Assembly (NCBI RefSeq): GCF_037042905.1
Contig: NC_087252.1
Span: 5,582,001-5,646,000, forward strand
Length of the DNA: 64,000 nucleotides
Reading direction: 5' to 3'
Source: Lytechinus pictus
Taxonomy: Eukaryota
Numbering within the stretch: the first letter of the stretch is position 1; the number at the start of each line of letters is the position of its first letter. The translations under genes were made by a program, and so were the position numbers. Below the pieces are notes generated by a model, which saw nothing but the letters and a program-made list of their open reading frames with translations, did no database searches and was not told the DNA's origin. Positions 23,188 through 25,363 of the stretch are shown one piece after another.

Positions 23188-23319
23188 TGTCATATGATCG
23201 TTTGACCTGGATAGTTGTAAGCGTGATAATTTTTGCCGTACTTCTACTAGGAGTGATTGTCCAGTTGGTGCGCCTGATCTATCACCGAATACGTGGACGC
23301 TTGCCCTGTTTAACACGAG
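23188..23319 (+). CDS. Transmembrane exon of a membrane-anchored P2X7-ballast-like protein
   Basis: ttaacag| acceptor and G|gtaaag donor; 132 nt, phase 1-1. Encodes SYDRLTWIVVSVIIFAVLLLGVIVQLVRLIYHRIRGRLPCLTR, a hydrophobic helix followed by basic residues. Splices in frame to 24095. Confidence 0.7.
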
Positions 23320-24094
23320 GTAAAGATTGTGCTAAGTTGGTCATCATGTATTTTTTGTTAATTTCTTACAAAGACCGATTCACTGCTTATTGTGATACAT
23401 ACTGTATTCATTATCACTATCCAAAATCAACCATCGCACATCCTTACCATGCATTTGTCATTTGATTATTTCCTCTTTCTTTCAACCAAATTATTTCAAT
23501 TGAATCATTGGTTTATTCTGGAAGAGAACGATATCTATATCTACGTACATGTAAGTCAATCCCATTGGCCCTTAAAATAGATATTCCGTACTTACTATAG
23601 AGATTGTTTCTCACAATGATTCAACCCGTGATATTTTGAGTCTATACTTCCTTGACATATTAGGTTTTATTTTTCACGTTTCTTATCGAATATCCATGAA
23701 AAATACTGTGCCCAGGAATCACTGAAATGGATTTAATTAATTGTTAATGATCCACGATGACCTGTAGCTTACATGATTATCGTCGACGTTCACTCGGGCA
23801 ATGTAAGAGGGTAGATGTCAATCGGTCAGGAGAATTCCTTCCATCCTTTATTCGTTGATATTACATAAAAAATTGAAAGTGCAAGAATATAGTCTTTGAG
23901 TACTCCAGCTCTAAAAGGTCAAGGGAGCACAAAGTTCAATACTTCTCTTGCGTGTTGTTTCTTACATGTTGGTATGACCCCATATACTGTTAATCGCCTC
24001 ATGAAGTACTTTTCCTGTATCTTCAAAGTCGTTTGTGCGTTAGCATAAGACGAGATCTAACCATTCTTTATATTGATGTTTTATTTTTCTTCAG

Positions 24095-24476
24095 AGTATA
24101 AAGATACAAAAAGAAGCAAGAAGGATGGGGTATTAAAGGCAGTCAAAAGTAAATGTGATGATGAACCTGACCAAGATACCGAGAGAAGGGAGGCTGATGG
24201 GATGTTAGCGACAGCTGGGTATAAAGATGCAGGTGAACCTGACAGAGACAGGATGGAGAGCAATTGGTGGTGTTCGTGTGGGAACTGTCCTGTGATGCAG
24301 CCTGATGTACAGTGCCTTTGTTGCCGTGAACTCAAGAGATGTCGTGAAATTCAGACCAATGGGTGTATAATTGATTCTAAAGAATTCCAAGTCATATGTC
24401 TTAACAAACCATCTCTTCGAGTGTTTCTCTCTTTGAGGAGCAAAGACCATCGAATTCCTGGAAATATGGGGAACGA
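24095..24476 (+). CDS. Exon encoding the N-terminal half of a P2X7 C-terminal 'ballast'-like Cys-rich domain
   Basis: tttttcttcag| acceptor and GA|gtaagc donor, phase 1-2. WWCSCGNCPVM...QCLCCRE...CIIDSKEFQVICLN matches the WCxCGxC...CC...CI pattern of the P2X7 ballast. Confidence 0.85.
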
Positions 24477-25062
24477 GTAAGCCTTTAATTGTGTTTATTA
24501 TTAAGGGAGAGGGGAATTTCAGTTAAAATGTTCAAGTGATAAAGAAAAGAAAATAACATACCAAACAAAACATATAGAAAAGAAGAAAGGTGGGGGTGGT
24601 AAAATGATAACAAGATACAACTGTAGTAAAAACAATAAAGTGGTTAAAAAATCCGATGGAAATAAAAAGTAAGGGTTGATGTTCATTTGGAACCTGGACT
24701 GAACTTACTTTTTTGGCTGCAAAATAGATTCACCGCACACCTTACGACTGGTCCCATGTTACGATTTTTGAAGAAAATCACACTTTGCTCTTTTCCGGAA
24801 AATATGAATGGAATTTTCTTTTTATTTGAGGTATTGATTAATTGAATGAAGCCTTTATTTGGATTGAAGGTCAAATTACATTCATATCGTAGCAAATTTT
24901 AAGATTTAGTACCGAGTCTTTCTGCCCAATTTTGACCTTTCCTCACCAGACTTTGGCATGCTTCATGTGGGTATTTGCATTGCAGCATTTGGTAATTTTT
25001 ACCGAAGTAAATGTCCATATTGGTGTCCTTATGGTTCTTTCCTTTTCAAATGGCCATTTCAG

Positions 25063-25363
25063 ATCATATCGGTTTGCCGCTTACAGGATTTGGTCAGATT
25101 ACTTACACGGATACATGGGTAAAGGAGTTCGAAGGCCTCTTCCAGCCTGCGTGGTGACACGAGTACGCCAAGAGTTCCCCGAGGAGACAGGTGTCTACGT
25201 TGGCTTCGAATTGGGGAAACGTGGGGAGAAGGTAATCGAAATGTCCCAACTGTTACAATATAGAATCTTCCGGGAGATAGTGACACCCAACAATAAGTTT
25301 GTACACATAAACTCGTGTGTTAAAATAATGAGGGGTAAATGCAGATGTCAAAATCTGTTTTAA
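25063..25363 (+). CDS. Exon encoding the C-terminal half of the ballast-like domain (it may instead end at a donor after 25231)
   Basis: catttcag| acceptor in phase 2, in frame with the previous exon. SYRFAAYR...G...RRPLPACVVTRVRQEFPEETGVYVGF resembles the P2X7 end (AYR...LPSCC..RIRKEFP...GQYSGF). Confidence 0.85.

Follow-up and report, generated by a model that had tools for sequence, protein, structure and literature searches.

A P2X7-type ballast domain of apparent Kolobok KolX origin in the predicted cytoplasmic tail of tandem immunoglobulin receptor genes of Lytechinus pictus

A 64 kb stretch of the sea urchin Lytechinus pictus genome (C8:5582001-5646000 of genome G000), hereafter 'the window', contains three exons encoding a transmembrane (TM) helix and a cysteine-rich domain of the type that forms the cytoplasmic 'ballast' of the P2X7 channel. 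A first-pass annotation, made from the sequence alone, proposed these exons as a possible independent capture of the ballast by a type I membrane protein; their positions, GT-AG sites and phases (1-1, 1-2 and 2-) were all reproduced, save for the end of the last. They constitute exons 5-7 of an eight-exon gene encoding a signal peptide, a V-type immunoglobulin (Ig) domain (IgV), a C-type domain (IgC), the TM helix, an acidic linker and the ballast. The model of this gene, termed copy 5 as the window's member of a tandem family, comprises 500 residues plus a stop, with exons 1-4 located 2.6-14 kb upstream of the window (C8:5567857-5579432). Its exons are as follows, positions without a contig prefix being those of the window.

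C8:5567857-5567947, upstream of the window: exon 1, signal peptide
C8:5575612-5575944, upstream of the window: exon 2, IgV
C8:5576819-5577078, upstream of the window: exon 3, first part of IgC
C8:5579327-5579432, upstream of the window: exon 4, second IgC exon
23188-23319, + strand: exon 5 of 8, TM helix followed by a basic juxtamembrane stretch with one Cys; phase 1-1, AG/GT sites
24095-24476, + strand: exon 6, acidic linker (~56 amino acids) and N-terminal half of the ballast from ~24262, with six of the seven Cys; phase 1-2
25063-25231, + strand: exon 7, C-terminal half of the ballast with the RxxAY motif, the seventh Cys and the core end at ~25207; phase 2-0
26956-26985, + strand: exon 8, short terminal coding exon of nine amino acids and a stop, in agreement with the end of database model P0001

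The TM stretch reaches a maximum 19-residue Kyte-Doolittle mean of 3.07, and residues 17-51 of a predicted structure, corresponding to the TM exon, are modelled as a single long helix; homologues of exon 5 are present in all five copies. Each ballast exon alone exceeds the cut-off of the Pfam P2RX7_C profile (23.5 bits), with 30.5 bits for exon 6 and 25.7 bits for exon 7, which together with the hydropathy bears out the series of TM helix, basic stretch, acidic linker and Cys-rich domain initially read from the sequence. Among four positions tried for the exon 7 acceptor (25062-25065), only 25063 has both a preceding AG and an open frame. The domain exon had been taken to end at 25363, up to which the frame past the exon 7 donor stays open, but this end proves to be a read-through variant: each of the five copies has a GT donor at the place that here comes after 25231, P0001 (the database model of the window locus) splices at it, and exon 8 lies beyond. 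Read-through lengths range from 8 to 43 amino acids among the copies, and in P0005, a model from L. variegatus, this donor likewise seems to be passed over. The DNA of exon 8 is 82% identical to the terminal-exon region of copy 4, and since its homologues are translated in differing frames among the copies, this exon is little constrained. Either C-terminal end may be usable, both lying behind the ballast domain.

A genome search with the N-terminal half of the ballast returned 21 matches among 28 candidates. Five are on C8, all on the same strand, 72-100% identical and spanning 260 kb, while the 16 dispersed matches are 36-45% identical. When database models were aligned to 464 kb around the cluster, signal-peptide, IgV and two IgC exons were found to precede the TM exon in every C8 copy, and the presence of the same series in four further tandem copies places it beyond chance. 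The five resulting eight-exon models share the intron phases 1, 1, 0, 1, 1, 2 and 0, have GT-AG sites at 35 of 35 introns and contain no internal stop; the signal peptide was called from its position and hydrophobic core. That of copy 3 is identical, letter for letter, to database protein P0004, in which a V-set, a C-type Ig and P2RX7_C are recognised (the second Ig matches C2-set_2 weakly, E 0.0002). Four database models labelled Lytechinus pictus were returned by a protein search, two of which have Ig domains before P2RX7_C; P0001 matches the latter with E 3.9e-18 and 66.5 bits, against the cut-off of 23.5. The features of a type I receptor of the Ig superfamily (IgSF) V-C kind are thus present: a signal peptide, a V-set, a C-type Ig, a single TM helix and phase-1 domain introns. 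The annotation had seen no P2X ectodomain exon in the window, which is correct; the ectodomain of this gene is found just upstream, and its exons encode no normal P2X channel. P0005, which comprises two Ig domains, the TM, the start of the linker and the C-terminal half of the ballast, groups with copy 3 (95/92), so the fusion and the first duplications would be older than the split between L. pictus and L. variegatus.

Identification of the Cys-rich domain as a P2X7-type ballast is upheld by its predicted fold. In a model built from a 110-row alignment, predicted local distance difference test (pLDDT) values are 85-98 in the core and mostly < 50 in the linker; all 14 Foldseek matches at E <= 0.001 are P2X7, and structure comparison with P2X7 aligned 131 residues at Z 13.4 with a root-mean-square deviation of 3.0, where the next unrelated chain scored Z 2.8, the P2X7 structures themselves being possibly known to the structure predictor. 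This model supersedes an earlier one from a 14-row alignment, which had pLDDT 54 and no Foldseek match at E <= 0.001. The seven Zn-type Cys (WCxCxxC, CC, C and PxC) occur in all five copies, the CC pair and the last C being invariant across 110 of 110 aligned proteins; phmmer puts the CC pair a few residues off relative to P2X7, and the pair was therefore matched by motif. A self-association prediction for three ballasts (P0001 residues 105-240, run without an alignment) scored 0.01 against a mark of 0.32 and speaks neither for nor against association, and the ESM Atlas held no usable match for the tail of P0004. As no kinase and no motif resembling the immunoreceptor tyrosine-based inhibitory motif was found in the cytoplasmic tail, the ballast appears to be its only folded module.

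Sequence comparison supports well the conclusion that this ballast was captured from a Kolobok KolX gene, separately from the capture that gave rise to P2X7. Four lines of evidence argue for such independence: an intron, similarity scores, genomic place and a KolX sister group, a tree joining the domain with P2X7 not being among them. Here the ballast is divided by a phase-2 intron, unlike that of P2X7, which is encoded in the single exon 13 according to PMC7016195; the same phase-2 intron is found in six of the seven dispersed KolX loci examined, with only its donor in the seventh. Of 145 ballast cores, the closest outside the receptors is P0019 (44% identity, 131 bits by blastp; the next scores 104), and this blastp score and one of 42 bits from phmmer stem from different programs. 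Over the ballast the two are 41-44% identical, with similarity beginning inside the linker. In trees containing no P2X7 sequence, P0019 is sister to the receptors with support of 88 (FastTree of all 145 rows) and 95/83 (a tree of 28 of the 145 cores, chosen after inspection of the FastTree result). As regards genomic place, no P2X ectodomain (PF00864) lies near the ballast gene, all 14 P2X_receptor matches in the genome being on contig C2 and none on C8.

The P0019 element itself (C16:10800283-10817790) is bordered by TTAA on both sides, its inverted ends match perfectly over 12 bases, and it contains a transposase frame convergent with the KolX gene. Similarly, a convergent transposase-type frame of at least 170 amino acids accompanies five of the nine dispersed ballast loci, out of 16, whose flanks were fetched, and all six right ends inspected finish in CCTTTA or CCTTTAA; the Pfam labels of the transposase-type frames are weak (Mutator 2.4e-7, MULE). 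PMC9587614 describes Kol0 elements as having a TTAA duplication, RR...YY ends and a KolX gene, and it is this description, with the arrangement and ends of the dispersed loci, on which their assignment to Kolobok rests. One of them, the KolX gene L013, has the end of its last exon tandemly repeated four to five times. Around the receptor gene, three Kolobok-type transposase frames used as queries gave no tblastn match at E 0.01 in 464 kb, and the TTAA and 12-base end of the donor-like element, the end of one family, gave 11 matches (<= 2 mismatches) in 464 kb and none in the window. The locus is therefore not inside a Kolobok element, an outcome in favour of the capture proposed in the first-pass annotation. 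Short TTAA-flanked elements with the inverted end of the P0019 Kolobok do occur in the vicinity (among others at C8:5435762-5436304, 5548692-5549260 and 5667285-5667901), two of this type lying in intron 2 of copies 1 and 3, from which it follows that the P0019-type family has inserted into the receptor cluster.

The Ig family into which the ballast was introduced is wider than its five ballast-bearing members. Of 26 genome matches to the IgV exon, 12 are on C8, and only five of these have a ballast behind them; the ectodomains linked to a ballast group together as a single clade (100/99), surrounded by relatives whose tails differ. Ballast-less relatives possess coiled coils with or without a ubiquitin-like domain, P-loop GTPase-like domains or death-like domains (Pfam Death, weak at E 0.04). 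For instance, in a neighbouring head-to-head Ig V-C-TM gene on the minus strand (C8:5151117-5165010, L089-L091; P0009), the tail consists of two coiled-coil exons and a ubiquitin-like domain. The TM exon of this ballast-less gene ends in phase 1 too, suggesting that tails could easily be exchanged by exon shuffling. The most distant relatives, P0045 and two Diadema setosum proteins, have a P-loop-type tail, which is likely, from these sequence comparisons, to have been ancestral and replaced by the ballast. In P0170 and P0045 this tail matches MMR_HSR1, and among the proteins it resembles in the Atlas is one named 'interferon-induced protein 44-like' (0.95). Such a cytoplasmic P-loop GTPase-like domain resembling IFI44-like proteins occurs in the sea urchin Ig V-C-TM receptors P0170, P0045, P0116 and P0142, which are an observation in their own right; no description of this combination was found in a literature search.

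We favour, with reasonable confidence, the reading that the 3' half of a type I receptor gene (signal peptide, IgV, IgC, TM, linker and ballast), belonging to a young family arranged in tandem, is present in the window, and that the ballast would act in this receptor as a docking module or switch. The ancestor of L. pictus and L. variegatus would have possessed clustered Ig V-C receptors whose tails could be exchanged. Both coding exons of a Kol0 KolX gene, and the phase-2 intron between them, would have come to be placed there behind the phase-1 intron following a TM exon; the transposon frame would then have been lost and the fusion duplicated into five copies. The ectodomain varies among the copies and so looks like a recognition module, and we infer that this variable V-C region might bind a cell-surface or microbial ligand. 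Ligand binding or clustering would act through the Zn-stabilised ballast, as a docking site or nucleotide-sensitive switch with a reduced guanine-nucleotide pocket, which may stand in for the P-loop (IFI44-like) tail of the distant members. Given that the gene is real, we regard a signalling role, argued by analogy with P2X7, as about an even prospect; ligand and nucleotide binding are likewise putative.

Among the copies, the ballast is under purifying selection. Across the 122 codons of its core, the ratio of nonsynonymous to synonymous change (dN/dS, omega) is 0.455 (likelihood-ratio test against omega 1, p 0.0008, five copies), such that a value below 1, named at the outset as support when found among orthologues, is seen here between paralogues. 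No stop was seen where 9.5 would be expected under neutrality (synonymous tree length 0.47), nor any change at the seven Cys, where the expectation is 8.7, and the core contains no insertion or deletion across five copies, as against 13 and 8 in the adjoining intron in two pairs. The IgV exon is also constrained (p 0.009).

Several observations, given in this and the next paragraph, weigh against the model of a ballast-tailed receptor. The measures of constraint come from five paralogues only, two of them nearly identical; pairwise omega is 0.20-0.71, indicating moderate constraint, the IgC exons reach only p 0.058, and the linker and TM exon have omega ~0.98. Two of the five residues that contact GDP in rat, numbered after PMC7016195, are kept (R546 and R578), H547 being replaced by F, R574 by V and K583 by E or N. 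P0005, the sole model from a second species, is without the six N-terminal ballast Cys, and may represent a broken or alternatively spliced L. variegatus gene. In copy 3 the usual exon 6 acceptor has been lost, and a substitute nine bases downstream is used. The ectodomain tree is weakly rooted (43/0, with long branches), and the architecture of Ig, TM and ballast was not found outside Lytechinus among at least the best 150 of 4223 matches listed, for a profile that included the Ig part. An unlikely alternative is that the ballast is tolerated as a passenger, or that it serves structurally in folding, sorting or stability without signalling, in a family that is turning over or decaying. An omega that is not strong, the three altered contacts, the missing half of P0005, the shifting frame of exon 8 and the restriction to a single genus would all fit this view; the absence of stops, Cys losses and core indels argues against it, as does the identity of the retained arginines, whose equivalents are the ones kept across invertebrate ballast domains according to PMC7016195.

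A second alternative accepts the family as real, but holds that copy 5, or copies 2, 4 and 5 with their long intron 4, are not made full-length, yielding an early-ending ectodomain along with a short TM-ballast protein from a transposon-derived start, or nothing. The features of the window that bear on this, and on the duplication considered below, are listed here.

1-23187, + strand: 3' part of predicted intron 4, the whole intron being 25,755 bases, from C8:5579432 to the TM exon
9538-20738, no strand assigned: 11.2 kb insertion in intron 4, with a TTA target duplication and GG...CC inverted ends; empty site in copy 2
20663-20705, + strand: first exon of P0001, 14 amino acids with a phase-1 donor (tblastn), inside the multi-copy end of the 11.2 kb insertion
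34590-34680, + strand: signal-peptide exon, the same as in copy 3 (tblastn 100%), from a sixth copy that consists of a 5' part only

Joining of ectodomain, TM and tail in one transcript of copy 5 is predicted, as database models make this connection only for copy 3 and L. variegatus, and the splice from Ig to TM would have to cross 25.8 kb including the 11.2 kb transposon, compared with 2.9-14.3 kb for intron 4 of the other four copies. A transcript linking TM to ballast is likewise predicted, on the basis of the models P0001-P0005 and the conservation of the splice sites. P0001 is without an ectodomain, and copy 4 is divided into P0006 (ectodomain) and P0002 (TM-ballast), a pattern of splitting that would follow from this alternative, as would the fresh insertion and the valid phase-1 donor of the P0001 first exon. 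Yet this exon lies in a multi-copy transposon end that is absent from copy 2, and because of this position it is probably a prediction artefact, although possibly an alternative start made by the transposon. The last 300 bases of the insertion gave 40 scored matches, 15 of them at >= 98%, the window itself among these. Intron 4 retains its GT, AG and phase 1 on both sides in all five copies, IgV is under constraint, and P0003, P0004 and P0005 span intron 4, joining ectodomain to TM. We consider full-length failure of copy 5 unlikely, and would expect it to be spliced and expressed. The 11.2 kb insertion, which we take to be PIF/Harbinger-like, showed no transposase-like frame by eye among frames > 100 amino acids. 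Elsewhere in intron 4, within the block common to copy 2, a reverse-transcriptase frame of a long interspersed nuclear element (672 amino acids; RVT_1, E 3.7e-32) occupies 5307-7328 on the minus strand.

A ~54 kb block, made up of copy 2 and the beginning of copy 3, recurs around copy 5 at 98-99.8% identity, and the IgV and IgC exons of copies 2 and 5 are identical, which raises a third, distinctly unlikely alternative: that copy 5 is the other haplotype of copy 2, wrongly set in tandem during assembly, leaving four genes rather than five and the architecture unaffected. Such an origin is opposed by the lack of any N in 464 kb, by the position of copies 3 and 4 between the two blocks, by private insertions with target duplications and by divergence of 2-7% confined to ~22250-26500. 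The duplicated block ends near 53160, ahead of any IgV exon, and no further IgV was found on C8 downstream of the sixth, 5'-only copy among the 26 genome matches. Within 22250-26500, copies 2 and 5 differ over the TM and ballast exons together with their introns, by comparison with ~0-1% on both flanks, and 15 of the 132 bases of the TM exon are changed. This diverged patch may be due to selection, or a divergent allele may have served as donor in a gene conversion; pairwise synonymous divergence identified no conversion source among copies 1, 3 and 4. A 3.5 kb insertion at 45067-48543, presumably piggyBac-like and with a GGG end before TTAA, is absent from the copy 2/3 block. The first exons of P0003, P0006 and P0007 match 51366-51446 and 52727-52882, and as similar sites exist in intron 1 of other copies, these first exons are probably prediction artefacts from shared intronic sequence.

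Finally, it is very improbable, and largely refuted, that a Kolobok remnant happens to lie behind a TM exon here, or that the exons belong to a P2X7-like channel gene: KolX genes are common (16 of the 21 ballast matches being dispersed) and short Kolobok-type elements occupy introns of the cluster, but no transposase or element ends surround the exons, the KolX start has been replaced by a phase-1 acceptor, frame and order are kept in five copies, and P2X exons exist only on C2.

The ballast-tailed receptor can be compared with several known systems. Like the urchin protein, P2X7 (PF20478 P2RX7_C; PDB 6U9V and 9E3O) carries a C-terminal cytoplasmic ballast behind a variable linker, with the same fold, seven Cys and R546/R578 equivalents. 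By contrast, P2X7 has two TM helices and an ATP-binding channel body where the urchin receptor has one TM and Ig V-C domains, and before ~residue 470 of P2X7 there is no sequence match between them; the urchin ballast also differs in its internal phase-2 intron, in the loss of H547, R574 and K583, and in having urchin KolX as its nearest kin. The same domain is found in KolX of Kolobok Kol0 and in nanor/ZCD (PTHR36981), as described in PMC9587614 and PMC7016195 respectively, and KolX P0019 shares the intron; KolX and nanor are short and soluble, whereas the urchin ballast lies outside any element, is fused to a host receptor and has been tandemly expanded. In the ectodomain, the signal peptide, V-set, C-type Ig and TM recall nectin, B7 and butyrophilin-like IgSF V-C proteins, a likeness of architecture in which the names are automatic. 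The nearest ectodomains are those of the relatives in the family (P0008-P0014, P0170, P0045, P0116 and P0142), with Lytechinus members 45-63% identical and tails that lack a ballast.

PMC7016195 describes the ballast (ZCD) proteins found across animals as short and, with the exception of P2X7, as lacking a transmembrane region, and PMC9587614 equates ballast proteins with KolX and treats P2X7 and nanor as domestications. According to PMC9574498, the P2X7 ballast is not directly involved in gating but is needed for other outputs; on its own the domain can bind GDP as well as Ca-calmodulin, although what GDP does there is described as unclear. The literature searched, in which few subscription journals were covered, yielded no account of a receptor combining Ig, TM and ballast; the architecture appears previously unremarked, being present only in automatic database models (P0003 and P0004).

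A hydrophobic segment was detected in two of 137 other ballast-type representatives, from the best 150 of 4223 matches listed (P0050 and P0158). P0050 and P0163-P0165, four isoforms modelled in the frog Hyperolius riggenbachi, consist of MHC_I, C1-set, TM and a complete ballast tail. P0050 is thus another single-pass Ig-superfamily chain with a ballast tail, differing from the urchin receptors in ectodomain and phylum, and known as a model from one species. It was not joined to the urchin receptors in the tree, although their union was not rejected (approximately unbiased test, p 0.056), and is possibly a further independent capture. A search for long ballast fusions yielded four frog proteins from 7838 candidates, and was insensitive, missing P2X7 and P0004 though both are in its length range. 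Other fusions include P0175 (Pelobates fuscus) and P0172-P0174 (Hyperolius riggenbachi), in which the ballast replaces zinc fingers behind an N-terminus resembling KRAB-like or zinc-finger genes, and P0127, which combines THAP with a ballast.

It is tempting, if doubtful, to regard KolX/ballast as a portable module for signalling, able to bind Zn and guanine nucleotide, which has been repeatedly taken from Kolobok for the tails of immune-type receptors, namely P2X7, the urchin Ig V-C family and the frog MHC class I-like chain, and which in the urchin family replaced an IFI44-like P-loop tail, so that one fold for nucleotide binding took the place of another. Were this true, the urchin receptors would signal via the ballast alone and would show the role of the ballast in P2X7.

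The known range of these genes, whose function is predicted, so far comprises two species of one genus. A receptor in which the ballast is the only folded cytoplasmic domain would allow the role of the P2X7 ballast to be studied with no channel involved, making its partners, nucleotide binding and output directly testable, and the residues kept and lost in it mark which positions of the domain matter. The family would also represent a young and datable case of exon shuffling of a transposon accessory gene, rather than a transposase, into a host receptor; an element closely related to the donor persists in this genome. In addition, the family suggests that sea urchins possess clustered Ig V-C receptors whose tails can be exchanged.

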